Shown piece after piece: positions 8,917-45,661 of a stretch of 45,661 nucleotides of DNA. The stretch is taken from the NCBI GenBank assembly GCA_040326155.1, contig JBEQLE010000026.1, positions 1 through 45,661 on the forward strand, given 5' to 3'. The position numbers and the translations under genes are program-made. The notes under the pieces were generated by a model that was given only the letters and a program-made list of their open reading frames with translations, was not told the DNA's origin and did no database searches. Each line of letters opens with the position of its first letter. Position 1 is the first letter of the stretch. This DNA comes from Leptospirales bacterium. GTDB lineage: Bacteria; Spirochaetota; Leptospiria; Turneriellales; JAOUFE01.

Positions 8917-10566
8917 TTACAGCAATGCTTTTTTCAGGCAGTGAAACAAAGCCTCTTGCCACTCACCCGCGTCCGCCGAGGAGGTATCGACCGTCATAAA
9001 GTCTGTTCTGTGCTGTTCTTGCAATTCTGTAGGTGGTTCATACGAGGCGTCCATCAGCTCTTTTTCTGTATGAGTAGCATCCGAGGTATTATTTTTTTCG
9101 TTTGGTCGGTGTTTCAAACGGCTTTCGATAATTTCGCTATTAGTTGTAGTCTCGATAATTATACAAGAGAAGCCTTCTTTGTGGAAAGCCTCCATAAAGT
9201 TTTTCCGAACCTCTTTTTTTGAGAAAGTGGCATCAATTACAGCCGGCGAGCCCTGTTTCAAGGTCTGTACGGTTTTTTGCAGCAGGCTGTTATATGTTTT
9301 TTGCGTCTGCTCAGGCGAGTATAACTCTTTTCGCGCCTCTTCACACGATGGTTTGTACGGATCCAGTTGGGCCAGCGATTTTCGTATGTAGTCAGAATTC
9401 AAATGGGGTATGGTAAAACTATCGGCGATATATCTTGCCACGGTTGTTTTTCCCGTTCCGACTTTACCCATAACCAGTATTGCAACCGGTTTTTCCGGTA
9501 AAAGCGCATATCGAAAACATAAAGCCAGGTATTTTTTCGCTTCGTTTATACTATTTTTCTTTTCATCGTCCGGAACTTCAGGTTCCGACGCTCGCAACAT
9601 GTTGACCTTAACGCGAACATAAGCCCGGTAGCACTTATAAAACCGAAAAAGCTCTCGAAGAGAAGAATCATTTTCATCCAATAAAACCAACTTTGCCAGC
9701 CTGTTACTTTCACGGGGTTTTTCATGATAATCTAAATCCATTGCTAAAAACGCAAGATCACTTGCTATATCAATGAACCTGAAATTGTCATTAAACTCAA
9801 TACAGTCATAAATACAGACAGATTTGTTTAGCTCACTATTTTGCAGATATATATGTTCTAGTCTGAGGTCGCCATGACAATCGCGAATCCATCCATCATG
9901 TAATCTTTTTTGTATAAATTCTTTGTGTGTATCAAAATAGTTTGTAGAATAATTGTAAATATACTTTGTTTTGAAAAGATCTTCCTCATCAAGTAAATTA
10001 TTTACAACCTTGAAATTATCTAAAACGGCATTTTGCACAACCTGCGCTGAGCCGAACCCGGAAAAATCAGGTTTTAAATTCTTATAAAAACCTCTCAAAC
10101 AATTGGCAAGAAGTTCAATATGATTCTGGGTTAGGCGACCAGATTTTGTAATCTCCTGTAAGCAGTTTTCAGTTTTCAAGTATTTCATTTTAATACCATA
10201 TTCGAATAATTCCCCCTTCTCAAAAGAGAATCTATTATTCTCTATGTATACTTTAATAATCTCTTCATATATTTCATCACACAAACGTTTATTCAAAGTG
10301 AATTCTTTGAACACATTTTGCCTGCGCTTTTCTAAACTAGAATAGTCAATAAAACCAAAGTTTATACTCTTTTTGAATTTATAGACATACGGCGGGGCAA
10401 TGGCAATAATAGAAATATGAGTTTGAATAATCTTTATATATTCCGGTTTATACGGGTAAGATTCCGCCTTAGATAAGAAATCGATTAACTGCTGTTCTCT
10501 ACTCACTCTGTACCAAAGATATATATTACAAACCGCTGCGAACAGAATTTTAACAGGTAAAACCAT
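8917..10566 (-). CDS. Bifunctional aminoglycoside-phosphotransferase-like kinase / AAA_33 P-loop protein (true start may be GTG at 10506)
   Basis: QTHIS, YKFKK, RDCHGDLRLEH, DCIEFN, DLAFLAMDL; C-terminal GKVGTGKT P-loop, SD.IRK and DATF. Confidence 0.9.
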   Translation of the reverse strand: MVLPVKILFAAVCNIYLWYRVSREQQLIDFLSKAESYPYKPEYIKIIQTHISIIAIAPPYVYKFKKSINFGFIDYSSLEKRRQNVFKEFTLNKRLCDEIYEEIIKVYIENNRFSFEKGELFEYGIKMKYLKTENCLQEITKSGRLTQNHIELLANCLRGFYKNLKPDFSGFGSAQVVQNAVLDNFKVVNNLLDEEDLFKTKYIYNYSTNYFDTHKEFIQKRLHDGWIRDCHGDLRLEHIYLQNSELNKSVCIYDCIEFNDNFRFIDIASDLAFLAMDLDYHEKPRESNRLAKLVLLDENDSSLRELFRFYKCYRAYVRVKVNMLRASEPEVPDDEKKNSINEAKKYLALCFRYALLPEKPVAILVMGKVGTGKTTVARYIADSFTIPHLNSDYIRKSLAQLDPYKPSCEEARKELYSPEQTQKTYNSLLQKTVQTLKQGSPAVIDATFSKKEVRKNFMEAFHKEGFSCIIIETTTNSEIIESRLKHRPNEKNNTSDATHTEKELMDASYEPPTELQEQHRTDFMTVDTSSADAGEWQEALFHCLKKALL

Positions 10567-33615: not shown

Positions 33616-35202
33616 TCAACTTCCGGCGATCAGTTGCGGGGCCTTAATCCAGATATGTTCGTTTATGTAAAACCCAACCAGGGCCAAAGCTCCGGCAAGG
33701 GGCAAGACAATCGGTAATAAAGCAACAGGCGCCTGCCATAAAATTCCTGCGGGTATAAGATTTCCTAAAAGAATTACACCAACAAAAAAGACCGCTCCGA
33801 ATCTTTTCCCGGTAATCATCTTCACGGTAAGTTTCGCATCCGAGGTCGGGTGAGACATGGTAATTTCGGCCAGCAATATAGCCAGGTTAAAAAGGAGCGA
33901 AAGACCAAAAACAGTTTTTACAAGGTCGAGAAAACCGGGGTTTATAGTTACAAGCAAACTCGCCACCAGAAAAAAGGAAGAACCAGCCAGCGCGCTCTGC
34001 ACTGCCATATGTATGGGCAGCAATGAACTTTGCCAGAAATCAATTCCTTTCGCCTGGGCGAGTAAAAAAGCCGTATAGATAGCCAGAAATCCACCGGAAA
34101 TTAGAGCTCCCCAAAGAGCTACAGTTTCAACCATAGGTATTTGCAGGTAGTTACCGGCCATCCAAAGAGCGATAAAAAACCCGAAAGAGGCAATAATAAG
34201 CCCTCCCCGCGTTAACCAGGAAGAGTATTGAGGCCGCAAAAATATATAAGCAAACCGGGAAGGTTTATCAAGATCTTTTACCAGAGCCGCCGAAGTCAAT
34301 ACGACAAAGCCAAGAGCCGAACTCGCACTAAACCAGGCAACACCCTCAGAAACTTCCGAAAGAGAAAACAGTGAAGCGACCGCAGTTAAAACAAACACTC
34401 CAGCGGCAATCGCCTTGGTCCAAAGATAAGCGGGAAGCTCCCATCCCCATAAAATTCCTTTCGAGGGGACATCGTGGGTTCTTCGAGACTGCCCTTCTAG
34501 CAATTTCTGACTCTCACCAGCTCCGTCCAAAACCGGAACAGAAGCAGATTCAGAACCTGTACGTTTCTCATTATATTTTGCATAATGACCGACACCACCA
34601 GCTTGTTCAGTCTGCTGGTATTGACGAGATGGCGGCGCAGCCATAGGATTTAACGAAGCCGCGTCACCTTGAATATAAAACAGTTTGGGAATAGTCCCTT
34701 TTTCCACTTTTCGGGCCTGAACCTGCTCACGACCAATCGTTTTGCTGATGGTCGAATCGGGGTTTTCCAGGTCGCCTGCAAGTATGGCCTGCTCGGGGCA
34801 AACATTCACACACGCGGGGTTCAACCCGGCATCAATTCGATGAGCGCAAAAATTACACTTCGCAGCGGTATCGGTATCGGGGTTTATATAAATAGAGTCA
34901 TAAGGACAGGCCAACGTACACGATTTACAACCGATGCAACGCTCCTGGTTAAAGTCGACAATACCGTCTTCCCGATTAAATAGAGCGCCAACAGGACAAA
35001 TTTTTACACAAGGGGCGTCGTCACAGTGGTTGCACCTCATGACAGTAAAAAACCGGCGGGAATTCGGGTACGTTCCGCGTTCCACATATTTTACCCATGT
35101 TCGGTTTACCCCAATGGGCACACTGTGTTCCGATTTACAAGCCACTGTGCAAGCGTGGCACCCAATGCATTTTCTATGATCTATCAGAAATCCGTAATTC
35201 AC
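33616..35202 (-). CDS. 4Fe-4S dicluster (NrfC/PsrB-like) fused to an NrfD/PsrC membrane anchor
   Basis: CIGCHACTVAC, CNHC...PC..ICP, CIGC.SC..ACPY, KCNFC.HR; C-terminal WGW..P.YL, DL..P.RF, SW..RG and multi-TM region; GTG start. Confidence 0.92.
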   Translation of the reverse strand: MNYGFLIDHRKCIGCHACTVACKSEHSVPIGVNRTWVKYVERGTYPNSRRFFTVMRCNHCDDAPCVKICPVGALFNREDGIVDFNQERCIGCKSCTLACPYDSIYINPDTDTAAKCNFCAHRIDAGLNPACVNVCPEQAILAGDLENPDSTISKTIGREQVQARKVEKGTIPKLFYIQGDAASLNPMAAPPSRQYQQTEQAGGVGHYAKYNEKRTGSESASVPVLDGAGESQKLLEGQSRRTHDVPSKGILWGWELPAYLWTKAIAAGVFVLTAVASLFSLSEVSEGVAWFSASSALGFVVLTSAALVKDLDKPSRFAYIFLRPQYSSWLTRGGLIIASFGFFIALWMAGNYLQIPMVETVALWGALISGGFLAIYTAFLLAQAKGIDFWQSSLLPIHMAVQSALAGSSFFLVASLLVTINPGFLDLVKTVFGLSLLFNLAILLAEITMSHPTSDAKLTVKMITGKRFGAVFFVGVILLGNLIPAGILWQAPVALLPIVLPLAGALALVGFYINEHIWIKAPQLIAGS

Positions 35203-35669
35203 GGCTTGTTCCTCTCATTATGTATTATTCTATTTCGTGGTTATATTTATTTGCTGCGATACAAATGCAACAAATATTAAATAAAATAATCTCATAATAT
35301 ACTAATATTCTTATACTAATATGGTTGGCGAAGCTGAGGAGGAAAAACGAGGCGTAAAGGTAACCACACCATCGGTACGCATTACGGTAGCAATCGAGGT
35401 ATTTCTGGGGTTTATTTTTAAAGTACTGTAGCCTCATTTTCGACAACAAGACGTATTATACCATTTTCTATTTTGGCGCGAGCATAGGGTGGGGATTTCG
35501 GTATTTATGGGGGAATTCCCTGGTCTGGATACTGCTGGTGTGGAAATCCACATGCGACGGCGGGCGCTCACGCGTTGGGGAAATCCACAATGTTGTTGCA
35601 CATGACGACTTGATTTTATCTGAAGTATTAAGGCTTGCAAGCCCCACTTGCCTGTGGCTTGAAGTCAGG

Positions 35670-35936
35670 CTAAGAGCTCAAATCTTCAATGCGCTTGAGA
35701 TATGCCTTTGCTGGAATATCTGCCGAATTAGCATCATAGACTTGTTGAAATAGAGCTTTTGCTTCGGTAAAATTTTCATCTACGAAGGCATCAACGGCTT
35801 TTTCAAAGCCTGACTTTGTGGCTTCTTTGTTTTTTTTGTTTTCTTCAGAATCTGCTTCATAGACTTCAAATATCTTTACTAGCTGGTTTTTCCCTTTTAC
35901 CTTAACAGTGTCTAATTTTCGATGAGCGAAAGCTGT
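35670..35936 (-). pseudogene. C-terminal remnant of a class III adenylate/guanylate cyclase
   Basis: Manual translation gives HRKLDTVKVKGKNQLVKIFEV...FTEAKALFQQV...AYLKRIEDLSS*. In-frame stop upstream and no start codon. Confidence 0.75.
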
Positions 35937-36115
35937 TTATTCTTTTCAAGATCTTTTTCAATCTGAGCTGAAGCCACTTTAGGAATGTAGACCGTTACCT
36001 TGTCAGAACCTGCCTCGCCCGTGATACCAAAACCAGGCTGTAGATCGTCTGAGCATGTGCCCACTGGTAAGGATATGGCGCCAGTGAAATGCTGTACTAA
36101 TTCTTCACTAATCAT
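35912..36115 (-). pseudogene. Short or truncated hypothetical ORF (possible N-terminal remnant)
   Basis: 67-aa ORF with a protein-like N-terminus that ends abruptly inside the cyclase remnant. Confidence 0.4.
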
Positions 36116-36179
36116 GTGACATTTTCTAGATGAATTTACTTAGTGCAATTATTTAGTATCTTTCACTTCTATAATTAAA

Positions 36180-36401
36180 CTATGGAAGATCACCTTTTAT
36201 TTTTCTAAAATTGATTGCAAAATTACGTCCTTCTTTAATGATTTCTTCAATGCTCATTCCTTCAAACAAAGTTTGTCTCCATTTTGTATAATCAAACCGA
36301 TTACAATTTATAATCGCGATGAAATGTTCCGCATCAACAGAATCCATATTATTAAAAAGTGCTTTAAAGCCTTCATGATATAATTCTTGTTCTGATTTCA
36401 T
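36180..36401 (-). CDS. Putative antitoxin (DYTKWR-type small protein usually paired with PIN toxins), orphan here
   Basis: G..AL...M..V.AE.FI......FDYT.WR..LF..MS.EE pattern, 73 aa; no PIN ORF adjacent. Confidence 0.6.
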   Translation of the reverse strand: MKSEQELYHEGFKALFNNMDSVDAEHFIAIINCNRFDYTKWRQTLFEGMSIEEIIKEGRNFAINFRKIKGDLP

Positions 36402-36633
36402 ATTTCTTCCGTTTCAAGTCAGAACGGCTCCGATCTGGAAGAGGGTTATTCTACAGTCTCGTTATACGCTGGAAAGAGTGCCTCTTTAGTATTTATTTAT
36501 AAATTTTGCCCTTTCCATTGCCGGAAATGAAAGTATTGATGTCGGTTCAGAGTAGCCAATATTAATAGTTAAGTGCAATAGCCATATGCATTTTTAGTGG
36601 TCTTTCTATAGGTTATTATCGATAGTTAAATTA

Positions 36634-37590
36634 ATGATAGAAATACTTGAGGTTTTAGCTGAAACATATCAAAAATCTACAAGAGAAGATTTTGTTTCAT
36701 TTATAAATCAGTACCCTGAGCAATTATCATGGCATTTAATCTCAGATTACTGCTTTGATGATTTAAATAAGCAGAATGATACGGCAACTTTCTCCGTACT
36801 ACTAAATCATGACAAGATTCCCACAATTTTGGATGCCATTAATAGTCATTCGCCAAAAGACTTAAAAAATACCCGAACTATAAATCCAAAGTTCCTAAAC
36901 TATATCAATTCAAAAGTGTTCTTCCATTTCACTTTTATTTTTGATAGAAAAGATTCATTTCTGAAAGATCTTGAAACAGATTCATTTGCCGCAAACACTG
37001 TTGATCAATTTATAATCCATTTGGGAAATTGGGAAAAGAATGTGCCAGAAGTAAAGGGCTATGTGGCTGCGGTAAAAAAGAGGCTTTCGTTACTTAAAAA
37101 TGATACTAAGAAAAAAAGTTTTAACCGAAAACTATTTAGAAAAATGTTTATTATAAGTTTACTATCTTCTTTCTTATGTCACGAACTAAATATTTTATCA
37201 AAACCGAAATATATTTCTTGGATTTCAGACCGTGATTCCATTATAAACTCTTTTGACGGTGTAACTTTTGATTTATCTTTTGTACTTATGTTACTTTTTG
37301 CACAAGATTATAACAATAACCATATTGAGAATCCAGTAAATCCACCAGTAATAAAATATATTTTACCAGAAGACGGGAAATCTAATTATTTAGATCCTTT
37401 GATTCGTATACCTGATTATTTAACAGGCACATTAGCTGATCTGGACATCTTAAAAAAGGAGTTTTCAAAAGATAAATATTATGATATATGTTTTTCATCT
37501 CTATTGGAAGCCCCAAATCACTCAATTATTTGGACTTCGAAAAACAAAAACACTTTAAGATACAGCACAAAAAGAATAAAAGTGATTTAA
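36634..37590 (+). CDS. AT-rich hypothetical protein, possibly RNase H-fold (DUF3800-like)
   Basis: 318-aa ORF; spaced acidic motifs ISDYC, WISDRD, IRIPDY..G..A. Confidence 0.6.
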   Translation: MIEILEVLAETYQKSTREDFVSFINQYPEQLSWHLISDYCFDDLNKQNDTATFSVLLNHDKIPTILDAINSHSPKDLKNTRTINPKFLNYINSKVFFHFTFIFDRKDSFLKDLETDSFAANTVDQFIIHLGNWEKNVPEVKGYVAAVKKRLSLLKNDTKKKSFNRKLFRKMFIISLLSSFLCHELNILSKPKYISWISDRDSIINSFDGVTFDLSFVLMLLFAQDYNNNHIENPVNPPVIKYILPEDGKSNYLDPLIRIPDYLTGTLADLDILKKEFSKDKYYDICFSSLLEAPNHSIIWTSKNKNTLRYSTKRIKVI

Positions 37591-37655
37591 TAAATATGCT
37601 ACCAAGTTGAACAAAGTCTATCTGTGCAGGAACGACTTAGCGCGCCTGCACTGCA

Positions 37656-37876
37656 CTATTTTATTATAGTTTTTATGAGTTGCGCGTTTTTTGTACTTAC
37701 TCGACCAAAAAATACATAATCCTTACATTTCGTTTTATCCCTGCATTTCTGACAAACCATTTTCTTATTAATCACTTGCGGTAGAAAGTCCATAATATCT
37801 TCTGCTGTTTTTGTCATAGGCTTACCGACAGCCCAGGCAATTCTTCTTAAAGTTGAACTCGATTTCATACTAAATT
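37656..37876 (-). repeat. Copy A of the repeated small Cys-motif gene (5'-truncated, inverted; ORF 37656-37868)
   Basis: Homologous to 41519-41755; encodes MKSSSTLRRIAWAVGKPMTKTAEDIMDFLPQVI...CQKCRDKTKC. Confidence 0.9.
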
Positions 37877-37971
37877 TCGAAAAGCGGAGAGGGAGCTTGG
37901 TTTAGGATTTTTTCGCAACAATCATACCTTTTCTGCTTGCCGAAATACATGGCTACCAGTATGTTGCGAAT

Positions 37972-40653
37972 ATGTCTGAATTCACACACACTCACAAGAG
38001 TGGGGGTGGAGAGAAAAACTCAACTACTAGAACTTCGACCAAAACAAACTCTTCCAACCAAGCTTCTAATAATATTCCGCATCAAAGGCCTTACAGTAAT
38101 CCTCGCGAATATATAATGTATTTGCAAAGAACTATAGGTAATCAAGCTGTAGGTCGATTGTGGCGATCCGGCGTTTTACAACGCAAACTCAACATAGGTC
38201 CGGCCAATGACAAGTATGAGCAGGAGGCAGACCACATTGCCGATCAAGTGGTCTCTATGAATGAACCCACTTCAGGTGTTCAGCAGAGTGATGCTACTAC
38301 AAATCCCCTTCCAAATGCAATATCCCGAAAGCCCTTGGTAAATGAAATAACACCGCTTCAAAGAAAACCATTGCAAAGGCAAACGGAAAAAATAGAGGAA
38401 GATGAAAACGTTCAAGGTAAACAGCTACAACGTCAAACAACAGAAAATAAAGGCCAGGAGACTTGTTCTACTTGTCAAAACGAATATAGTAACGCCAAAT
38501 TCCAAAGGCGAGCTGCCTTGGGTTCTACCCTCTGTCCGAATTGCAGATCATCCTGGATGCAAAAAATGATGACAAAACCCAACACTGCAACAGGACATGG
38601 CTCTGTTAGGATACCGCTCAATTCCTCTGTCCAACGGAAAGAATTGTCTACACCTGCCCCGTATGGGATTGAATCTGCGATTAATTCGACCAGAAACGGT
38701 GGAAAATCTCTTTCACAAAATGAGCGTTCCTATTTTGAACCACGGTTTGGTACAAGCTTTGCCAATGTACGTTTACATACGGATTCAAATGCCTCTCAAC
38801 TTTCACGCTCCGTAAATGCACGTGCATTTACTACGAGGAATAATATATATTTTGGAGCTGGAGAATACTCCCCTAATAGTATTCAGGGTAAACGGTTAAT
38901 GGCTCATGAGTTGACACATACTGTGCAGCAAAGAGGTCATCAAGGGAGTATGAACGAAGTAAAAGGAGTTTTACTTAGAAAACCAAGCCCTTTATTAAAT
39001 TATGACACGCTCGCTCAAAAAATTTACGATGCGATATCCGGATTTGGAACCGATGAAGAACAGGTTTATCGAGCACTTGGTAGACTAAATAGGGATCCAG
39101 GAAAAATTGCTAAGTTAAAAAAAATATACAAAAATAAATACAGCGAAAGTCTTATCAGTGCAATCCAGGGTGATTTCAGCGGTACTGAACTGGAATATGC
39201 GTTACAGTTACTGAATAAGGGTAAATCTGCCACTCCGCAGGCAATAAAAGCAGCCCCTGGCAATAAAGATGAGTACACCCTTGCAGCAAACAGAATCCGT
39301 AAAGCTGTAGAAGGAGTCGGTACAGATGAAGAAGCTATCTTTGCAGTTTTGATTTCTCTTACACGACTAAACAAACCCCTTACAAAATTATCCTATAGAT
39401 ATTATGATCTATACCATGAGAATATGCGTGAGCGCATTGGCAGTGAACTTAGTGGTTCAGAAAAAGCGTATGCATTCTACTTATTAAATGAAAGTGATTT
39501 AGCCAAACAAGGAACATTGGCTATTTTGCAGTATATAAAATCCGAAGCAGAAAAGCAGGCAAAAAACTCCCCCCTAACCATCGATCCGTCATCCAAATTC
39601 TATAAAGAGTTAAAAAATGTTTACTTAAAAGATTACTTGGCAAATCCTTCGCAAGCGACGGGCAAAAAAGGGGTTAAAAATATTGGACGACAGCTTGAAG
39701 GACGATTCAATCCAAAGAATTCCAATCAGGTTGATGTAAGACCTGAAAATGGAAAATGGCGACCCGCTGAAAACAAATGGGAAAAAGGCGGTTTTTTATA
39801 TTGGAACAAACAGAAAGTTCCCGAGATACCGTCGGCACTACGAGATCTTCCGATTTTTAAAAATATAATAACTCTTCCGCCGGAACTGGCCGCCGGTACA
39901 GATGTACTCATTAAAGAAAAAAGTACCCGAGTTCCATTTATTGATGTACCTTTTTTACTTGGCGTAGGCAATGCAAACACAACAACTCTTGTTGCTGATG
40001 TCGTAGGGGGCGGTACAAATATATCCCAACTGATGCACTGGGCTACCGGCGTCAAGTATTCAGATAACTCGCCTGAAGCCATGCGTGAGCTGTTTCTGGC
40101 ATATGAAATATGGCACTTGGAAGCGTGGGATGTTTTTGGTCAAGATCCTTTAAACGATATGATAGCAGAAGAACAAGGACGATTGCTCGGTACGGAACTT
40201 AGGAAAGGTAAAAAAGGCTCAATTAAAAAAGAAGCCGATCTGCTCCCTTTTCTAGATCGTTCTTTTCGTGAAGCCCGAGCGTGGGTAGGATCACTACTAA
40301 AGTTACGTAAAAACGAACTTGACAATTGGATAACAGCTATAGATCAAAAACGGGCAGTTATTCATTGGAATGAAAATGTCAAATATGAGATCTGGCCGGA
40401 AACATCGTACCAAAAGCTGGCAAAAGGAACGACGTTAGACGATGTTAAGAAGTCCAGTTTGGTAGAATCACAGATAGAAATTTACCGCCTTATTTTTGAA
40501 GCACAAAACTGGGAGAAAGCCAACGGGAAAATAAACATTACCCCATTACAAAAGGCATTGGTTGAAGGAAAACTCAATTCCATATTCATAGCAATGGCTA
40601 ACAATAAACCCCTGACCACGATGGAAAAGTTAATTATATACAATGATTTATAG
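37972..40653 (+). CDS. eCIS-type polymorphic toxin/effector: LQRxxGN leader, DUF4157 domain, two annexin repeats, unknown C-terminal domain
   Basis: LQRTIGNQAV, D.YEQEAD..AD.V, FEPRFG..F..VR.HTD...ARAFT....I.F..G.Y.P......AHELTH.VQQ, G.GTDEE twice. Confidence 0.88.
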   Translation: MSEFTHTHKSGGGEKNSTTRTSTKTNSSNQASNNIPHQRPYSNPREYIMYLQRTIGNQAVGRLWRSGVLQRKLNIGPANDKYEQEADHIADQVVSMNEPTSGVQQSDATTNPLPNAISRKPLVNEITPLQRKPLQRQTEKIEEDENVQGKQLQRQTTENKGQETCSTCQNEYSNAKFQRRAALGSTLCPNCRSSWMQKMMTKPNTATGHGSVRIPLNSSVQRKELSTPAPYGIESAINSTRNGGKSLSQNERSYFEPRFGTSFANVRLHTDSNASQLSRSVNARAFTTRNNIYFGAGEYSPNSIQGKRLMAHELTHTVQQRGHQGSMNEVKGVLLRKPSPLLNYDTLAQKIYDAISGFGTDEEQVYRALGRLNRDPGKIAKLKKIYKNKYSESLISAIQGDFSGTELEYALQLLNKGKSATPQAIKAAPGNKDEYTLAANRIRKAVEGVGTDEEAIFAVLISLTRLNKPLTKLSYRYYDLYHENMRERIGSELSGSEKAYAFYLLNESDLAKQGTLAILQYIKSEAEKQAKNSPLTIDPSSKFYKELKNVYLKDYLANPSQATGKKGVKNIGRQLEGRFNPKNSNQVDVRPENGKWRPAENKWEKGGFLYWNKQKVPEIPSALRDLPIFKNIITLPPELAAGTDVLIKEKSTRVPFIDVPFLLGVGNANTTTLVADVVGGGTNISQLMHWATGVKYSDNSPEAMRELFLAYEIWHLEAWDVFGQDPLNDMIAEEQGRLLGTELRKGKKGSIKKEADLLPFLDRSFREARAWVGSLLKLRKNELDNWITAIDQKRAVIHWNENVKYEIWPETSYQKLAKGTTLDDVKKSSLVESQIEIYRLIFEAQNWEKANGKINITPLQKALVEGKLNSIFIAMANNKPLTTMEKLIIYNDL

Positions 40654-40661
40654 GATTTATA

Positions 40662-41207
40662 GTGAGAAAAATATATCGTTTTCGCATTGTCATATTTGTA
40701 CTTTTTATTGGAACATTTTCCTGTAAAATGTATAAAAACCAGAATAAAAATATTGAATCCATTAAGAGAAATTATTTCTGGGGTTCTGAATGTATCGATG
40801 TCCTTTTCGTTGGGCTTGCCGTTAGTACAACTGCAATTCAATATGGACAATCCCTCAAGCTATTTTATGCTATTAAAAACCAATCTAAAAAAGAAAGAAC
40901 TGTTACGATACAGCATGACCTAGATAGTAGTTGGCGCTTCTGGGTTCATCTATTTTCGCGAAATAGTGAAAAATCGCTATTTAAGTTTTATCCTAACTTT
41001 CAATCTGATAATTCAGAAAATAAGGTATCAATAATTTCTCATCAAACAATAATTATTCCCCAAGAACAAATTATAGAATTTATGGAAGATGAATTCCGGT
41101 TTGCATCGATTGTACCCCGCGGAAAATATCGCCTGCAACTACTGTTCGGTGGGCCGGATTTTGACTTTTCGTGCCGTAGTGACTTTATTCCTATTGAAAT
41201 CTTTTAA
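40662..41207 (+). CDS. Putative immunity lipoprotein (Ig-like fold?) for the upstream effector
   Basis: GTG start 8 bp after the toxin stop; lipobox GTFSC; beta-rich pattern ending PRGKYRLQL...S..IPIEI. Confidence 0.6.
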   Translation: MRKIYRFRIVIFVLFIGTFSCKMYKNQNKNIESIKRNYFWGSECIDVLFVGLAVSTTAIQYGQSLKLFYAIKNQSKKERTVTIQHDLDSSWRFWVHLFSRNSEKSLFKFYPNFQSDNSENKVSIISHQTIIIPQEQIIEFMEDEFRFASIVPRGKYRLQLLFGGPDFDFSCRSDFIPIEIF

Positions 41208-41264
41208 AGAACAGTCTCCAATATATAATAAAATGCTAGCTGCCCATATTGAAATATGACAACT

Positions 41265-41513
41265 CTAATTAACCGTTGCATGACAAAATAATATTATTTG
41301 AAGCTGTAAATTATTTACAATGCTACGTCTTTGCTTCGAACTATTAAGTAACTTGTTAATTACCTCAAAAGATGGCCTTTGAGAACCAGCTTCTATGTGG
41401 GAAATAAAAGAACGACCAATGCCCGTTTTTTCTGCGATCACTTTTTGCGAATAACCAATTGACTTTCGAAATTCTAACATCCGATGTCCCAGCCCGTCTA
41501 AATCTACTACCAT
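41265..41513 (-). CDS. XRE-family helix-turn-helix protein, C-terminus probably degenerate
   Basis: LG.R....RK..G.SQ...AE..GI.RS.IS.IE.G...PS. Confidence 0.75.
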   Translation of the reverse strand: MVVDLDGLGHRMLEFRKSIGYSQKVIAEKTGIGRSFISHIEAGSQRPSFEVINKLLNSSKQRRSIVNNLQLQIILFCHATVN

Positions 41514-41518
41514 TATTT

Positions 41519-41755
41519 ATGGCATATACACCTGAATTTAGTATGAAAGCGAGTTCGACATTACGACGAATTGCCTGGGCTGTGGGCAAGCCTATGACCA
41601 AAACGGCTGAAGATATTATGGACTTTTTGCCGCAAGTGATTGATAGGAAAATTGTTTGTAAGAAGTGCCGGGATAAAACGAAGTGTAAGGATTGTGTTTT
41701 TTTTGGCCGAGTTGATACGAAGAATGCGAAGTTGATTAAGACTATTATTAAGTAG
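41519..41755 (+). CDS. Copy B (full length, 78 aa) of the repeated small protein: helical N-terminus plus CxxC-x5-CxxC motif
   Basis: MAYTPEFSMKASSTLRRIAWAVGKPMTKTAEDIMDFLPQVIDRKIVCKKCRDKTKCKDCVFF...; mostly synonymous divergence from the other copies. Confidence 0.8.
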   Translation: MAYTPEFSMKASSTLRRIAWAVGKPMTKTAEDIMDFLPQVIDRKIVCKKCRDKTKCKDCVFFGRVDTKNAKLIKTIIK

Positions 41756-41764
41756 TTTGGTGGG

Positions 41765-41783
41765 GGCGCGTGCAGGGCGCGCC
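41765..41783 (+). terminator. GC-rich hairpin after copy B
   Basis: GGCGCG-TGCAGGG-CGCGCC followed by TTT. Confidence 0.45.
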
Positions 41784-41992
41784 TTTGGGGGGTTTATTTT
41801 GTTATGCGAAAGAATAAGTCAATCTTGGCCTAATTTAATACGCTGAAATTGTTTGAACGCTGTGAGTAAACAGTCCCCGGTCAAACAAAATTGTCACGCC
41901 CATATTTTCTGTTATGGGGGTATGCTTTTTTGAAGTTATATATTTCAGAAAAGTTCTTGTCATTTTACAATACTGTTGCAAAATGAACTGTA

Positions 41993-44020
41993 ATGTCTCA
42001 ACCTGCCCAGCCGCAAAAATCTCCCGGTGAAAAAGGTTCATCTTCTAAGACATCGACCACACCTGCGCCCTCTCATATTTCGTTTCCGAAAGGCATTCGT
42101 AATCGTCACGATTACATAATGTACTTACAACGTACGATTGGCAATCAAGGCGTCGAGCGTCTTTGGAATTCGGGCTGGTTACAAAAAAAGCTCAACATAG
42201 GCCCGGCTAATGATAAGTACGAGCTGGAGGCTGACGCGGTCGCCGATAAAGTCGTTTCGATGGATGCTCCGGTGGCCGATTCGAAAAGCGACTCTGCCGA
42301 TAAGGTCGGTAATTCCACACCTGCTGCAACGCCACAAATTGCCAGATCTCCTGTTGTTGACTCGATCACCCCTCTGCAACGTGAAACATCGAAAGAAGAC
42401 GAATTGCAAGAAAAAGAGGTGCAGCAAGGGGCGAGTCTTAGAAGAAAAGCTGGTACTGCTTCTGCAGAATCGATGATGGCGGGAGTTCCTGTAAGCAAAA
42501 GGGGAATAGCTTATCAAAAAGTGGGTGTCAACTTAAGACAAGAGCCACTCTCGAAATCAACGGTTCTGGAAAGACTTCCCCAAAATAAGAAGTTTTTTGT
42601 TTCTCGAGAAATTGATGATTGGTATCAGGTCTACCTCGACTCCGGCCAAATGGGCTACGTCGCAGCAGCCTATGTAAAGATCGATCTTCCCGAACCTAAC
42701 GCCAATATTTACTTCATCGAAAAGGACGACTATGCTCTGAACATAGCTAAACAGAATTATGATTCAAGTATTTTCTCATGGGGCAATGACCTTCGTTTTT
42801 TTGTCAATGTGATGGAACATATCAACGGTAAAAAGGGCGCACTCTATAAAGATAATCCAAAAGACGACTGGGATAAGGTAAAAGTTAAAGCCGGTCAATA
42901 TATCTGGGTACCGAGCCAGGAGTTTGCCGATACCCTGCGAGGGAAAGTGGGTTCTGGTTCAATCACCCACGATCTTTTTTCAAAGGCACAGGAGCACGGC
43001 CTAGGTGGAGCGGCAGAATTTATGATGTCGGTTGGTGGCTTTCACGCTGGTTTGGTCGAAGGGCTCTGGCTCTCCATCTGGGAAACTCTGGTAGGCCTGA
43101 AAGATGCTGCGGTGATGATTTACGACTTTGTGGCTTCTATATTCACAGGGACGATTATCCAGGACTTAAAAAATCTCTGGGAAGCTTTGAAAAATTTGCC
43201 CGAGGCGGTCAAAGCTGGGTGGAAAAGTTTCAAAGAGAAGTGGAACCAACCAAGCCCCCTCAGGCGATGGCAGTATCGAGGTAAAATAGCGGGCCAGGTG
43301 GTCGGGGAAATCGCCTTAGCTGTTTTGACCGCCGGAGCCGCCACCGCACTAAAGCTCGTTGCCAAAGGTAGCAAGTTTGCTAAGTTTCTACAGACCCTCG
43401 CTCCGGTAAGGAAATTCGTCGCCACTGTTGAAAAAGGCAAAAACAAAATTGCTCCTGTGCTGAACAAATTGAAGTTGAAGAAAAAGCCTGGTATTAAAAA
43501 AGATATCGACCAGCCGAAATCAAAAGAAGAATTGGAAATGCACGAGGCGACTTTGCGTGCATCCCTGGAGGGCGACGATCTTATAAAAAATATGAAAAAG
43601 TCTGAATCTTCTTATCTCATTGCAAAAGGTAAAAAGGGACTCCAGGTAAAACATCGAATAAAACCTGAAAAGTTGTGGGAATTATCAGAAAAGACTGGAG
43701 TAGAGTGGGCGTATATCGACAATGGTTTTGAAAAAATAGTTCAATCGGGGACACGCTTGGAGGTTAATTTTAAATACTATCCATCTACAACAGAGATTAT
43801 ACATACACATTTAGCAAACCCGTTACCATCATGGGAGGATTTTTTCTTTTACAAGCAAGCCACTGCTGACTTCGGTATTCCAATTAAAAAATTTGGAATA
43901 TACTCAAAAGAAGGTTATCAGGAATATACAAAAGTGAATTTTTTAAAACTGGCTAAAGAAGGTAAATTGAAACATGCAGGTCGTCAAGATGAAAAAAATA
44001 AAAAAAAACTCGGTTACTAA
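41993..44020 (+). CDS. eCIS-type polymorphic toxin/effector: LQRxxGN leader, SH3b, LysM-like segment, hydrophobic helical linker, JAB/MPN-like C-terminal domain
   Basis: Leader shared with the 37972 gene; VNLR.EP......WY.V....G..GYV...YV (SH3b); E...IIHTH....PS..D near the C-terminus. Confidence 0.8.
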   Translation: MSQPAQPQKSPGEKGSSSKTSTTPAPSHISFPKGIRNRHDYIMYLQRTIGNQGVERLWNSGWLQKKLNIGPANDKYELEADAVADKVVSMDAPVADSKSDSADKVGNSTPAATPQIARSPVVDSITPLQRETSKEDELQEKEVQQGASLRRKAGTASAESMMAGVPVSKRGIAYQKVGVNLRQEPLSKSTVLERLPQNKKFFVSREIDDWYQVYLDSGQMGYVAAAYVKIDLPEPNANIYFIEKDDYALNIAKQNYDSSIFSWGNDLRFFVNVMEHINGKKGALYKDNPKDDWDKVKVKAGQYIWVPSQEFADTLRGKVGSGSITHDLFSKAQEHGLGGAAEFMMSVGGFHAGLVEGLWLSIWETLVGLKDAAVMIYDFVASIFTGTIIQDLKNLWEALKNLPEAVKAGWKSFKEKWNQPSPLRRWQYRGKIAGQVVGEIALAVLTAGAATALKLVAKGSKFAKFLQTLAPVRKFVATVEKGKNKIAPVLNKLKLKKKPGIKKDIDQPKSKEELEMHEATLRASLEGDDLIKNMKKSESSYLIAKGKKGLQVKHRIKPEKLWELSEKTGVEWAYIDNGFEKIVQSGTRLEVNFKYYPSTTEIIHTHLANPLPSWEDFFFYKQATADFGIPIKKFGIYSKEGYQEYTKVNFLKLAKEGKLKHAGRQDEKNKKKLGY

Positions 44021-44021
44021 T

Positions 44022-44363
44022 ATGAAAGATGCAGATATCAAAAAAGATGATTTACGTGATTCAACAGGAGAGTATTATCAACTCAAGTTGACCATGAACA
44101 TCCCCGTAGAAAAGTATGTTCCTCCCGAAATCGACTACCCAAATTCTTTTAGATATTTGATTATCTCGCACAATACAGAGGACCCCAGAGCATTGGGGGA
44201 GGTTCGCTTGATAGAAGATTATGATTATAAAGAAATTGTAATAAAGAAATTGAAAGAGATTCATGGTATTGTTGATCCCTGGGACTTGGAACCTGAGAAA
44301 TATAGAAAAAAATGGGAAGAGACTCCTTGGACTGGTTATGATGAAAACGATTGGTCTGGCTGA
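44022..44363 (+). CDS. Putative cytoplasmic immunity protein for the upstream toxin
   Basis: ATG 1 bp after the toxin stop; small acidic protein with no signal peptide. Confidence 0.6.
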   Translation: MKDADIKKDDLRDSTGEYYQLKLTMNIPVEKYVPPEIDYPNSFRYLIISHNTEDPRALGEVRLIEDYDYKEIVIKKLKEIHGIVDPWDLEPEKYRKKWEETPWTGYDENDWSG

Positions 44364-44763
44364 CTCCACTTTCTATTAATTATTTATTTATTTCTATAGC
44401 TAAATCATTACCCGATATTCATGAGGCTATAGAAGATATACCGGAAACTTTTCGAGAGAAGGGCGCTGAAGCTTTAACTGAATTTAACGGAACAACGTTG
44501 GCGATGAAAAAAAATATTACCTCTTTGGCCTCAAATCCCAAAACGGAGGTACAAAAGTATACTTTAAATTCATTTGGAAACTAAGATACTATTGCTTAAA
44601 CGGATAATCCTTTCATTTGTAAAAATGATTCGGTAATTCGAGGTTTCAAGTGTGTGTTTTAAATGATAGATGCTGCCTATCTATTAGTTCTGTAAAAAAA
44701 AAGGCGCTCTTTCCTTCGCATGCAGTAAGAGCATTTTCCCTTTTCCTATTAGCAACCAGTCAA

Positions 44764-44976
44764 TTGAAAGCGAGTTCGACATTACGAAGAATTGCCTGGG
44801 CTGTGGGCAAGCCAATGACGAAAACGGCTGAAGATATTATGGACTTTTTACCGCAAGTAATTGATCGGAAAATGGTTTGTAAGAAGTGCCGGGATAAAAC
44901 GAAATGTAAAGGTTGTGTTTTCTTTGGCCGAGTTGATACGAAAAATGCGAAGCTGATTAAGACTATAATTAAGTAA
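44764..44976 (+). repeat. Copy C of the repeated small Cys-motif gene (lacks MAYTPEFS; ATG replaced by TTG)
   Basis: Near-identical to 41543-41755. Confidence 0.92.
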
Positions 44977-44997
44977 TGTGGTTTACAAATTTCATTA

Positions 44998-45309
44998 CTA
45001 ATCCTTCAATAGCAAGACTTCTTCTTTTTTCGATTTCGATCCCATAGGTCGTGCTTTAATTTCGACTTCCATTCCGATGCTGTGTAAATAATCTCTTAGT
45101 GTAGATAATTTGATATCTTTGCGATTTTCTATTTTTGAAATACTGGACTGGGCGAATTTGCCAATGTCGACTTGTTTGATACCCATGTTTTCTCTCAATT
45201 CAGCTAGTCGAATATTCAAGATCATTGATTTTGCATTCTCTTCTGCATTGGCGATTCTACTTGCAGATAATCTAGATTTAATATTTTCTATTGCTTTTGA
45301 TTTATTCAT
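44998..45309 (-). CDS. higA: XRE-family HTH antitoxin (HigA-like)
   Basis: L.ELRE..G..Q......Q..ISKIE.R.D.KLSTL..Y....G..VEI.A; directly downstream of a RelE-type toxin. Confidence 0.8.
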   Translation of the reverse strand: MNKSKAIENIKSRLSASRIANAEENAKSMILNIRLAELRENMGIKQVDIGKFAQSSISKIENRKDIKLSTLRDYLHSIGMEVEIKARPMGSKSKKEEVLLLKD

Positions 45310-45310
45310 T

Positions 45311-45559
45311 TCATTCCCTCAAACTATTCAAATGTTTCTCATATAACTTATCAGCGATCGGAATCATTTTTTCATAAAATTTATTCTTACCACGTTTGTC
45401 CCCGGCTATCAACAATACACCGGTTTGCTTTGGATCAAAAGCAAAGAATATTCTGTAAACATGTTTTCTATTTTGCACACGCAATTCCTTCATATTCGGA
45501 TACCTACTTTGTTTTATATGATCCACATAATGATATTCCGTCAAGGGAATATTTACCAT
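45311..45559 (-). pseudogene. higB: RelE/ParE (Gp49/HigB-like) toxin, probably N-terminally truncated
   Basis: YVD.IK.S.YPNMKELRVQ....YRIFFAFDP....VLLIAGDK.G..KFY..MIP.AD.LY..HL; the usual N-terminal part is missing. Confidence 0.75.
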
Positions 45560-45579
45560 TATTACGATGTTTTGTAATC

Positions 45580-45661
45580 TGTAAGAAGTGCCGGGATAAA
45601 ACGAAATGTAAGGATTGTGTTTTCTTTGGCCGAGTTGATACGAAGAATGCGAAGTTGATTA
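45580..45661 (+). repeat. Copy D of the repeated gene (3' half only; runs off the window)
   Basis: TGTAAGAAGTGCCGGGATAAAACGAAATGTAAGGATTGTG...GAAGTTGATTA matches copies B and C. Confidence 0.92.

Follow-up and report, generated by a model that had tools for sequence, protein, structure and literature searches.

Near the end of a 45,661-nt contig from a Leptospirales bacterium (the whole of which is referred to here as the window), the same small gene occurs four times, and between its copies lie toxin-like effectors, putative immunity genes, and a toxin-antitoxin (TA) pair. The question raised by this arrangement is what the small gene is, and whether it is the terminal, conserved part of a small integrative element that stacks at the locus, as proposed in a first-pass annotation, or has come to lie between the cargo blocks in some other way.

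Gene copies and cargo in the window

The four copies are found where the annotation had placed them, between 37.6 and 45.7 kb (Table 1). Copies B and C form a direct repeat (41544-41761 and 44765-44982; 218 nt, 93% identity), an 82-nt family relates both to copy D (41657-41738, 44878-44959, and 45580-45661; 93-98% identity), and copy A provides an inverted arm that aligns with B at 82% over 236 nt (37641-37876 versus 41535-41770) and with C at 83% over 214 nt (37654-37867 versus 44765-44978); as judged from the sequence, identity over such lengths cannot be chance. The four are not equivalent, with the whole 78-codon ORF present only in B. The first 8-9 codons are missing from A and C, the homology of A to full copies begins ~8-11 nt upstream of its internal ATG, and A has a tyrosine in place of the fourth cysteine of the family (C59, invariant in 58 sequences). 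Read in this way, and with the junctions described below, all four window copies are damaged or truncated relics.

Table 1 Features of the copy-bearing part of the window
Feature	Position	Strand	Remarks
AT-rich ORF, 318 aa	36634..37590	+	convergent to copy A; GC 0.33
GC-rich hairpin 3' of copy A stop	37601..37668	+	weak match to repeat R
Copy A	37656..37868	-	70-codon ORF without first 8 codons
Effector 1	37972..40653	+	eCIS_core (DUF4157), annexin repeats, uncharacterised C-terminal region
Putative immunity gene 1, 181 aa	40662..41207	+	named from position
Truncated XRE/cI-type partner of B	41265..41513	-	HTH_3 E 3e-11
Copy B	41519..41755	+	complete 78-codon gene; true start 41519
GC-rich hairpin 3' of copy B stop	41760..41800	+	present after most other copies too
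Effector 2	41993..44020	+	SH3_3; without eCIS_core domain
Putative immunity gene 2, 129 aa	43974..44363	+	named from position
Partner-gene remnant (from ~codon 59 onward)	44726..44769	-	runs straight into codon 10 of copy C
Copy C	44764..44976	+	first 9 codons replaced; TTG at internal Met position; ORF otherwise open
HigBA-type TA pair	44998..45559	-	antitoxin 44998-45309; Gp49/HigB-like toxin 45311-45559
Copy D	45580..45661	+	3' fragment beginning at first Cys codon

Effector 1 matches eCIS_core (PF13699, E 4.7e-28) and Annexin (E 1.2e-15) and is 48% identical over its first ~150 residues to effector 2, which groups with five eCIS_core proteins by BLASTP. The ORF that follows each effector matches no Pfam, PHROG, or NCBIfam family, and its immunity role is presumed from position. 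The same three collections contain no family for the AT-rich ORF, which has no paralogue near other copies, while the TA toxin matches PF05973 (E 9.9e-15) and its antitoxin matches HTH_37/HTH_3 weakly. The annotation was also right that an integrase or transposase is absent, with no such domain in the 32 ORFs of at least 120 aa between 1 and 35.2 kb or in 14 scanned ORFs of the island.

The predicted protein and its divergent partner

The small gene belongs to a family without a Pfam, PHROG, or NCBIfam match, which comprises 364 clusters among 1.84 billion representatives and whose members occur mostly in mobile elements and phages. An AF2 model built from a 58-sequence alignment (pLDDT 82.7) predicts a ribbon-helix-helix-like N terminus followed by a CxxC-x5-CxxC knuckle that probably binds zinc, so that the earlier description of a helical, ribbon-helix-helix-like protein with a four-cysteine site is sustained by modelling. 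With residues 1-50, the top VIA structural matches are nearly all ribbon-helix-helix proteins, among them Arc, Mnt, NikR, omega, ParD, PutA-RHH, PrpA-RHH, and Reg576, with a best Z of at most 4.4-5.0, under the tool's own reliable level. The Pfam ribbon-helix-helix families give no match even at E up to 5, a PDB sequence search gives no significant match, Foldseek has no match with an E of 0.001 or lower, and the N-terminal strand is absent from the monomer models. The homodimer model scores 0.80 compared with 0.00 for the best of three controls, passing a mark that is reached by 20 of 30 one-chain-pair structures and by 1 of 23 single-chain structures, although this pass may partly reflect likeness, because ribbon-helix-helix dimers have already been solved. 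Contact agreement among the runs is 100%, partner pLDDT is at least 85, and the interface includes residues 1-18. The protein is confidently predicted to be an intertwined homodimer, which presumably binds DNA.

In this Leptospira-like lineage the small gene is, in its intact form, one half of a two-gene unit, with a divergent cI/XRE-type repressor on the other side of a 127-156 bp promoter region that carries TTGACA/TATAAT-like boxes. The partner, an HTH_3/Phage_CI_repr protein of 116-122 aa, stands beside the copies on four contigs of the genome (C29, C3, C77, and C140), and the same divergent pairing is present in eight of nine close metagenome loci (L089-L097), the ninth of which begins at the small gene. 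In the window, only residues 1-58 of the partner fragment beside copy B are homologous to full-length partners, and 57 of these 58 residues are identical to the 119-aa protein of L089 before the match stops. Compared with L089, copy B has lost ~135 nt of promoter/control region at a short shared ATTA motif, so that the start codons of the two genes are now 5 bp apart, and no promoter-like site was found upstream of it. In copy C the deletion begins at about codon 59 of the partner, ends at codon 9 of the small gene, and has TGAAA as its shared motif, and the same junction is found in three copies elsewhere in the genome (C14_a, C14_b, and C14_c), with homology to C14_a extending from -38. The junctions of B and C would be best explained by microhomology deletions.

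That the XRE and small genes are themselves an addiction-like or abortive-infection pair, multiplied in the manner of TA families and independently of the cargo, would fit the high copy number, deep divergence, and frequent decay described below, as well as islands full of other TA genes (HigBA, PIN, Phd/ParE, and a ParE-like pair on contig C64) and two folds, XRE-HTH and ribbon-helix-helix, that are both typical of antitoxins. We consider it improbable, in that the genes are divergent and form no operon, both products look DNA-binding and contain no toxin-like domain, and in other phyla the small gene has no XRE partner and is instead found in RadC, Rad52, or PDDEXK operons or fused to these enzymes.

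Copies across the genome and the origin of the junctions

A TBLASTN check of the organism's own genome yields 22 matches, corresponding to about 20 copies on 12 contigs; four of these are intact units and the rest are truncated. Two of 41 related genomes, with this one counted, contain any match. The copy-bearing islands are variable and rich in eCIS and RHS toxins, TA pairs, and defence genes, with an eCIS_core gene within 5 kb of a copy in 5 of 12 cases compared with 2.4% of the genome (binomial 5e-6, for loci that are not independent). Many copies are on short contigs or at contig ends, and the window itself ends inside copy D at a 77-mer common to the ends of contigs C5 and C64, an assembly fork that might suggest collapsed strains or chimeric contigs as the source of the repeats. 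Such an assembly or binning artefact is very hard to credit, however, given that a single contig carries A, B, and C with 7-18% difference among them and flanks unique to each, that estimated contamination is 1.71%, and that the unit architecture recurs in independent metagenome contigs.

The differences among copies are those of a selected protein. Between codons 2 and 70, copies B and C have 12 synonymous and 2 non-synonymous differences, the 16 counted earlier being reached by adding ATG/TTG and TAG/TAA. In 17 of 28 pairs dN/dS is 0.012-0.076, and dS runs from 0.34 up to saturation, which it reaches in the other 11; this combination of low dN/dS and high dS indicates paralogues that are either old or were acquired separately. 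The annotation's view, that the family has diverged under strong purifying selection and is not a local duplication in decay, is borne out. Truncated copies follow the same pattern, with 12 synonymous to 3 non-synonymous differences between C and C14_a. Simple relic status does not predict this excess, which can be explained only if truncation was recent, intact copies have converted the truncated ones, or some function remains. Homology between loci does not reach beyond the small gene (about -24 to +220), within which four-gamete incompatibility is seen among sites. No exchange event between copies was observed, and a role for the gene as a homology handle for swapping cassettes is possible but unproven.

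Homologues elsewhere sit in mobile elements, which upholds the suspected link to mobile DNA. RadC is encoded within two genes upstream or three downstream at 21 of 51 loci, PDDEXK_1 at 8, ArdC-N at 5, and Rad52 at 4, with an adjoining large serine recombinase at 2 and a phage capsid gene at 1. Among 16 longer family members two are fused to RadC and one to PDDEXK, and IMG/VR holds six loci with RadC, SSB, or capsid neighbours. An origin in mobile elements rests on these homologues in other taxa, because no phage or conjugation genes were seen adjoining copies in the organism's own genome.

A dispersed attC-like repeat of ~265 nt (repeat R), with GCCTAAC...GTTAGGC ends and a single orientation within arrays, organises cassette-like arrays elsewhere in the genome. 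Typical attC sites are about half that length. In the window its only match, a weak one, is the hairpin 3' of copy A (nhmmer E 1.4e-4, profile positions 9-79).

Could the gene, or a site within or next to it, be the conserved end of cassettes that integrate site-specifically and stack, each integration leaving a partial copy, as do islands at tRNA genes? Its boundaries are sharp and recurrent, with one 5' junction common to C and C14_a-c, those of A and C3_b within ~11 nt, and the 3' fragments D, C99, and C142 beginning within ~17 nt of one another, a clustering that might point to a favoured site of recombination. In a related Spirochaetia MAG the gene is divergent to a large serine recombinase at both of two loci, the two-gene units lie in R-punctuated arrays elsewhere in the genome and at nine of nine close metagenome loci, and the assembly splits inside copy D into two different continuations. 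Against this, a Resolvase-family search of the genome (94.7% complete) gives no match, its four tyrosine recombinases (the one checked being XerD) are on contigs without copies, and no integron integrase scores above cut-off in it or in 40 relatives. The window and six copy-bearing contigs contain no tRNA, the window and those contigs with copies that were examined contain no recombinase or att-type duplication, and no full R element lies in the window. Cargo lies on either side of the gene and in either orientation, the sequence across the shared 5' junction is collinear with the HTH/small-gene unit apart from a simple internal deletion, and the small-gene codons 1-9 that reciprocal integration predicts to the left of B's partner fragment are absent there. 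With relic copies, two junctions that read as microhomology deletions, and a natural unit in which the gene diverges from that of an XRE repressor, the proposed terminal module is not supported, and we regard site-specific integration as unlikely.

The explanation that we favour, and hold to be somewhat on the probable side, is that the copies are relic regulator genes at seams between separately acquired or rearranged blocks. The protein encoded, 78 residues long, would be dimeric and ribbon-helix-helix-like, would bind DNA, and would have a four-cysteine knuckle at its C terminus; its family is uncatalogued and occurs on phages, conjugative elements, and other mobile elements. With its partner the gene forms, when intact, a self-contained unit in which both genes diverge from a control region with a TTGACA-type promoter. 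This would be a two-repressor switch of the type with which mobile elements control immunity or establishment. Each incoming block would have brought its own copy, already under strong purifying selection, and the copies would be conspicuous because they were selected while everything around them is unrelated. The junctions may have arisen by ordinary recombination, that is, homologous exchange within the gene and microhomology deletions, with no dedicated integrase. The small gene would thus mark an island prone to recombination; it is not proven to define a new type of mobile cassette.

Comparison with known systems

The cI/Cro-type divergent switches of temperate phages consist of two small DNA-binding proteins and one short control region, and in cryptic prophages their relics outlast the remainder of the element, as with DicA/DicC of Qin and Arc/Mnt of P22. 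The partner here matches Phage_CI_repr and, weakly, the RstR and DicA models, but the second protein is predicted to be a ribbon-helix-helix with a Cys knuckle rather than an HTH of the Cro type, genes for phage structure or lysis are absent near every copy in the organism's own genome, and about 20 copies is far above the usual count of prophage relics. The ribbon-helix-helix antitoxins of type II TA systems (MazE, ParD, TacA, VapB, and CopG-like) are the best structural matches and are likewise multi-copy, island-borne, and often decayed, but the small gene has no cognate toxin gene, is divergent, and has a Cys knuckle in place of the toxin-binding tail. In Rhs, CDI, and other polymorphic toxin loci, short conserved stretches in tandem effector-immunity pairs allow recombinational swapping. 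The window effectors similarly have a common N-terminal region, whereas the homology of Rhs/CDI loci is inside the toxin gene and the most conserved repeat of the window is an unrelated regulator gene between pairs.

Integron cassette arrays, which reportedly include TA-rich sedentary chromosomal integrons and attC clusters without integrase (PMC4889954, PMC3607928), also contain blocks of one to three genes, TA pairs among them, and a recurring separator sequence, but the separators in the window are relics of a protein-coding gene and not attC sites. Another counterpart is Reg(p576), a ribbon-helix-helix repressor of establishment genes in pLS20-family conjugative plasmids, a small dimer that represses its own and neighbouring promoters in a variable setting of establishment and anti-defence genes that includes ardC (PMC8708921; PDB 6gyg). 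Homologues of the window gene are similarly found amid RadC, ArdC, DUF932, Rad52, and PDDEXK genes, and 6gyg is among the best structural matches (Z 4.2, 58 residues aligned, rmsd 3.9). Reg(p576) differs in having no detectable sequence similarity and no Cys knuckle, while the window family, a putative regulator, is paired with an XRE repressor in its own lineage.

The small Cys-motif gene and its divergent partner

Public homologues of the small Cys-motif protein start eight codons upstream of the 70-codon frame adopted in the first-pass annotation and carry a near-invariant MAYTPE(L/F)S; the ATG at 41519 of copy B matches the start of the homologues, and B is the sole complete, 78-codon copy in the window. 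Invariant positions in a 58-sequence alignment include four Cys-motif residues, Cys59 of CxxC-x5-CxxC among them. The protein has no usable match in Pfam, PHROGs or NCBIfam, one member matching an unannotated PHROGs family at E 0.0014; a PDB sequence search gave no significant match (best E 0.31), no ribbon-helix-helix Pfam family was among the matches of 20 members at E up to 5, Foldseek against the PDB gave nothing at E 0.001 or better, and the ESM atlas gave unnamed clusters only, some of them phage-rich. At E 0.001 or better, the 58-member profile retrieved 364 clusters (clustered at 50% identity) from 1.84 billion representatives, nearly all of them stand-alone proteins of 60-110 residues.

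The AlphaFold model made with the 58-sequence alignment (pLDDT 82.7) begins with an extended octapeptide, followed by helices at residues 9-22 and 26-40; the Cys pairs are surrounded by short helices, and the C-terminus is helical too. DSSP assigned no strand in the monomer models, and the strand of a ribbon-helix-helix protein normally forms only upon dimerisation. When the model was compared with 48,161 chains in the VIA structural comparison, the list for residues 1-50 was almost wholly ribbon-helix-helix, at Z of at most 4.4 (5.0 for the first model), which is under the tool's reliable level; the fold is stated in two row titles (PutA RHH and PrpA RHH), and the rows for Arc, Mnt, NikR, omega, ParD, TacA, AmrZ, FitA, TraM, NikA, ORF56 and Reg576 are ones that we take to be ribbon-helix-helix as well. 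The predicted homodimer, which includes two zinc ions, scores 0.80, compared with 0.00 for the best of three controls. Of the proteins solved as one-chain pairs, 20 of 30 reached the mark for this score, against 1 of 23 of those solved as single chains; the score may partly reflect likeness, because solved structures include many ribbon-helix-helix dimers. The contacts agree across all three runs (pLDDT 85-86), with residues 1-18 of both chains in the interface, and the obligate intertwined homodimer with paired N-termini that is typical of the superfamily is present in prediction only. The earlier guess of a ribbon-helix-helix-like protein with a zinc site holds up as a prediction, and the protein is probably a ribbon-helix-helix-type dimer with a C-terminal zinc knuckle, which we infer to bind DNA.

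In its own genome the small gene gave 22 tblastn matches, representing about 20 copies on 12 contigs, and among 40 related genomes there were matches in one other only, two in number. Complete copies on four other contigs of the genome (C29, C3, C77 and C140) are flanked by a divergent cI/XRE-type repressor gene, the partner gene, whose 116-122 aa products match HTH_3 and HTH_19, Phage_CI_repr in three of the four, and RstR and DicA weakly. The same divergent pairing is found in eight of the nine metagenome loci that carry close relatives of the small gene (L089-L097, 74-96% protein identity), the ninth contig beginning at the small gene itself. The spacers measure 127-153 bp on the four contigs, or 127-156 bp with the metagenome loci included, and place TTGACA-type -35 and TATAAT-like -10 boxes before the small gene; as for shared operators, inspection of three related spacers by eye picked out no more than candidate inverted motifs of the TGCCAT type. 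An all-against-all BLASTP of the ORFs around the copies produced two recurrent neighbours only, the HTH family with 15 members and eCIS-type effectors with 6. Because the pairing recurs and few other neighbours do, the unit is best described as self-contained, its two predicted DNA-binding proteins being encoded divergently, which is how a cI/Cro-type switch or an autoregulated establishment/immunity module is laid out. The unit does not look like a type II TA pair, in which toxin and antitoxin genes would be co-transcribed, since its genes are divergent and include no toxin domain.

In the species-representative genome collection the family has 54 loci, mostly in Desulfobacterales and other Desulfobacterota, with a few in Spirochaetia, KSB1, Verrucomicrobiota, Gemmatimonas-like and Anaerolineales MAGs. 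In the 51 of these with an ORF callable at the match, RadC lies directly upstream in 14 and at most three genes downstream in 7, and downstream of the small gene there are PDDEXK_1 nucleases in 8 loci, ArdC-N in 5 and Rad52-type annealing proteins in 4; UvrD helicases, DUF932, DUF2958, a HerA/TraG-like ATPase and Sipho_Gp157 are further neighbours. One Spirochaetia MAG has two copies, each of them transcribed divergently from a large serine recombinase gene, and in a Spirochaetaceae MAG the small gene adjoins a phage capsid and prohead protease. Among 16 longer family members scanned, two are RadC fusions and one is a PDDEXK nuclease fusion. IMG/VR contributed six loci, with RadC, SSB (twice), DUF1064 and a capsid with protease among their neighbours (50 of 80 ORFs scanned, leaving out L109, which has the layout of L108, and the shortest ORFs). 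The RadC, Rad52, PDDEXK, ArdC-N and capsid neighbours point to a mobile-element gene of an early, establishment or recombination region. What is new is an uncatalogued small protein family from the phage, conjugative-element and island DNA of several phyla, together with a concrete two-gene regulatory unit that can be tested.

Probable relics of the unit in the window

The first 35.2 kb of the window hold housekeeping genes (cytochrome oxidase, FolD, AdoHcyase and molybdopterin oxidoreductase among them), and the island begins after 35202, where GC falls to 0.33. No recombinase or transposase domain occurs in the 32 ORFs of at least 120 aa in the first 35.2 kb, and the domain scans of that part and of the island found no recombinase domain, in line with the original statement that the window lacks an integrase or transposase; Rfam found no family in 35000-45661. 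Two small ORFs at the left edge of the island are possibly another TA-like pair.

Repeat search and ORF listing recovered the four copies of the small gene at the coordinates first assigned to them, and the domain scan agreed with the cargo as first described, finding the eCIS_core effector, the HTH_3 protein and the Gp49/HigB-like toxin with a weak HTH. In the repeat search the B region (41544-41761) and the C region (44765-44982) form a direct repeat of 218 nt at 93% identity, an 82-nt repeat family starts at 41657, 44878 and 45580 (93-98%), and inverted arms of 236 nt and 214 nt (82-83%) link 37641-37876 to both direct copies. Copies B and C differ across codons 2-70 by 12 synonymous and 2 non-synonymous changes, and with ATG/TTG and TAG/TAA this makes the 16 differences counted originally.

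Coordinates of features in the window, on other contigs of the same genome (C) and at metagenome loci (L)
Position	Strand	Feature	Remarks
8917-10566	minus	549-aa ORF	AAA_33/zeta-toxin-like kinase domain; amid housekeeping genes
35912-36115	minus	67-aa ORF	no family match
36180-36401	minus	73-aa ORF	no family match
36634-37590		AT-rich ORF	no match in Pfam, PHROGs or NCBIfam
37601-37668		R, weak partial match	only R match in window; hairpin after copy A
37656-37868	minus	copy A	starts at internal Met; first 8 codons lost; Tyr at Cys59
37972-40653		effector 1	PF13699 (eCIS_core, formerly DUF4157), E 4.7e-28; annexin repeats
40662-41207		putative immunity ORF (by position)	no match in Pfam, PHROGs or NCBIfam
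41265-41513		HTH_3 protein	partner-gene fragment of copy B
41519-41755		copy B	
41993-44020		effector 2	no eCIS_core; first ~150 residues 48% identical to effector 1
43974-44363		putative immunity ORF (by position)	no match in Pfam, PHROGs or NCBIfam
44764-44976		copy C	first 9 codons replaced; TTG at internal Met position
44998-45309		HigBA antitoxin	weak HTH_37/HTH_3
45311-45559		HigBA toxin	Gp49/HigB-like, PF05973, E 9.9e-15
45580-45661		copy D	begins at first Cys codon; ends with contig
C14:4070-4276		paralogue of 73-aa ORF	adjoins other small TA-like genes
C21:4116-4289		second subfamily	45-49% identity
C163:13448-13642		second subfamily	45-49% identity
C140:17183-17386		second subfamily	45-49% identity
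C48:3030-4234		contractile sheath (PF04984) and T4 gp19-like tube (PF06841) genes	side by side
C16:70-8889		R, example	
C106:6922-12386		R, example	
C14:5660-7515		R, example	
C140:13369-16249		R, example	
L090:3768-4040		R, reference copy	
L096:122-2095; C142:18458-19771		group II intron RNA domains and intron-type reverse transcriptase/maturase	near cassette-like arrays

Breakpoints were placed against the intact unit on L089, whose partner protein is identical to that of the window at 57 of 58 residues, up to residue 58. In the case of copy B, the 135-nt spacer has been deleted at a short shared ATTA motif, leaving 5 bp between the start codons, and the homology of its partner gene ends after codon 58. 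Copy C is preceded by sequence collinear with the 3' portion of the partner gene, beginning near codon 59, which passes directly into small-gene codon 10 at a shared TGAAA motif. An internal deletion has thus removed partner codons 1-58 together with the spacer and small-gene codons 1-9, and three copies on C14 (C14_a, C14_b and C14_c) have this junction too. The promoter scan found no convincing promoter before any window copy. Products of one reciprocal integration were also considered for B and C and rejected, since small-gene codons 1-9 are absent to the left of B's partner fragment and the partner-gene breakpoints are also about 10 nt apart. The window copies are read as relics, and the two junctions as ordinary microhomology deletions.

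Several observations nevertheless stand against a plain relic account. Copy C and C14_a have the deletion in common, yet they differ at 12 synonymous and 3 non-synonymous positions, and in C14_a a stop codon takes the place of the internal Met; either the junction arose repeatedly, or gene conversion from intact copies is overwriting these ones, or selection still acts on a shortened product. The closest copies show all four combinations at pairs of sites (e.g. positions 14 and 56), a pattern that, with few sites, is compatible with recombination between copies. The 5' breakpoints cluster, at +1 in four copies and at about -8 to -11 in A and the C3 copy C3_b, and those of the three 3' fragments cluster around codons 34-39. 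The clustered breakpoints, the site patterns and the C/C14_a differences keep a site-preference model alive beside the reading of the window copies as relics.

Copies across the genome and their islands

Nucleotide homology among the loci covers the gene only, from about -24 to +220 relative to the internal ATG, sometimes with the hairpin 3' of the stop. For the eight open-frame copies (B, C, A, C14_a, C29, C77_b, C3_a and C140; C77_a, C3_b and C14_b were left out for frameshifts or replaced ends), dN/dS is 0.012-0.076 in 17 of 28 pairs and dS is saturated in the other 11, with a lowest dS of 0.34. The copies are old paralogues or separately acquired genes, each under purifying selection, and the original view of a diverged family selected at the protein level stands on the low dN/dS and on dS that runs from 0.34 to saturation.

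Most copies are damaged. There are four intact units, one of which (C3_a) has Arg at the invariant Pro25; copies A, C and C14_a are without a 5' end, and fragments or frameshifted copies are C14_b, C14_c, C3_b, C77_a, D, those on C99 and C142, and contig-end pieces on C5 and C64. Of the second subfamily listed in the table, one copy has unknown genes on one side and an RHS toxin on the other, and another, with an in-frame TAG, follows an AAA ATPase and subtilase pair.

The surroundings of the copies are typical of weapon and defence islands. Two eCIS_core effectors lie on C14 and one each on C3 and C142, C140 has two RHS toxins, and there are pairs of the PIN, Phd/ParE and HigBA kinds. Other genes nearby are an AAA_15 ATPase, a DUF5131 gene accompanied by its partner and an HNH nuclease, a ResIII helicase, a fragment of a C5 methylase, and an AAA ATPase together with a subtilase. 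The genome has 12 eCIS_core genes, spread over 9 contigs, and 5 of the 12 are within 5 kb of a copy, compared with 2.4% of the genome (binomial 5e-6, with loci that are not independent). The sheath and tube genes on C48 indicate that an eCIS-type particle locus lies far from the effector islands. Multiplied some 20-fold inside such islands, the small gene is a practical marker of the hypervariable weapon and defence islands of this lineage; these hold eCIS and RHS toxins, TA pairs and defence genes, and the small gene is a candidate recombination anchor for the turnover of their cargo.

Repeat R and comparison with known systems

The first-pass annotation had proposed that the small gene is the end module of an integrative element or else a homology handle, a mechanistic reading that is only partly supported. 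Its first form is not supported, since a recombinase domain and a tRNA are absent from the window and the flanks of the partial copies fit internal deletions; no tRNA or tmRNA target occurs in the window or on six copy-bearing contigs, no Resolvase-family match was found in the genome (94.7% complete), and its four tyrosine recombinases are all on contigs without copies. The small gene is one half of a two-repressor unit of mobile-element type and not the end of an integrative element, and it may serve as homology for block exchange. There is as yet no evidence for a new kind of integrative cassette, and the original claim is lowered.

The contig's terminal 77 nt (45585-45661) recur without a mismatch at the ends of contigs C5 and C64, which places an assembly-graph fork inside copy D. 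The C5 branch runs through the stop and hairpin into a partner-gene fragment and a large kinase/GGDEF gene, and the C64 branch (1.2 kb) carries a ParE-like toxin with its antitoxin and a HigA-like gene, the 77-mer at its far end being found at C14:3956-4032, beside C14_c. From these shared 77-mers, the island is an assembly-graph tangle with at least two continuations, one with further TA genes.

Many contigs of the genome and the loci L089-L097 also carry R, a dispersed non-coding repeat of about 265 nt, for which an nhmmer profile found 95 pieces on 49 contigs. Several copies have inverted ends (GCCTAAC...GTTAGGC), and R folds as a long single-strand hairpin (z -5.3). Each array keeps R in a single orientation (5 of 5 copies on C16, with further runs on C106, C83, C7, C41 and C161). 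Copies are 1-4 kb apart and separated by one to three genes, for example an eCIS effector pair in the case of C16 and HTH/small-gene units in those of C14 and C140. On three R-bearing loci Rfam found nothing but two group II intron matches on L096. R may belong with MITE/REP-like elements or else represent an unusual kind of attC-like site.

The end motifs of R resemble attC core sites, a likeness that lies in the ends and the hairpin, and the window appears to differ from an integron in having no attC-like sites between cassettes, since it gave one weak partial match to R only. For IntI, TIGR02249 gave no match above its 265-bit cut-off in the 94.7% complete genome (best piece 102.7 bits), and none was found at E 1e-40 in 41 genomes (this one and 40 relatives) in a search without a positive control. 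The recombinase beside the R array on C106 was rejected as an integron integrase, being XerD (356 bits, cut-off 329.6), and a GTTAKGC core site after the hairpin was rejected as a cargo boundary, occurring after B and the C5 and C29 copies only and not after most of 21 aligned copies. It is improbable, in our estimate, that units and R form an integron-like cassette system of Leptospira-like bacteria that works without a canonical IntI, through Xer or another recombinase. Were it so, such a system would shuffle cassettes of toxin, immunity, TA and defence genes. The small gene would then serve both as a switch carried on the cassettes and as a favoured point of crossover, and the array in the window would derive from one of this kind while being poor in R.

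Effector 1 has the PF13699 domain of eCIS-associated (DUF4157/eCIS_core) effectors, with which effector 2 shares the N-terminal leader only, and at 44998-45559 a Gp49/HigB-like toxin gene lies upstream of an HTH antitoxin gene on one strand, as in HigBA. For the unit itself, the two DNA-binding genes and one short promoter-bearing region of a divergent cI/Cro-like switch are found in the intact units and the metagenome loci and in no window copy. Reg of plasmid p576 is a ribbon-helix-helix autorepressor that holds variable establishment genes, e.g. ardC, off in the donor, and these genes fire briefly once transferred (PMC8708921). In its role, Reg of p576 is the closest described analogue of the small gene's family.
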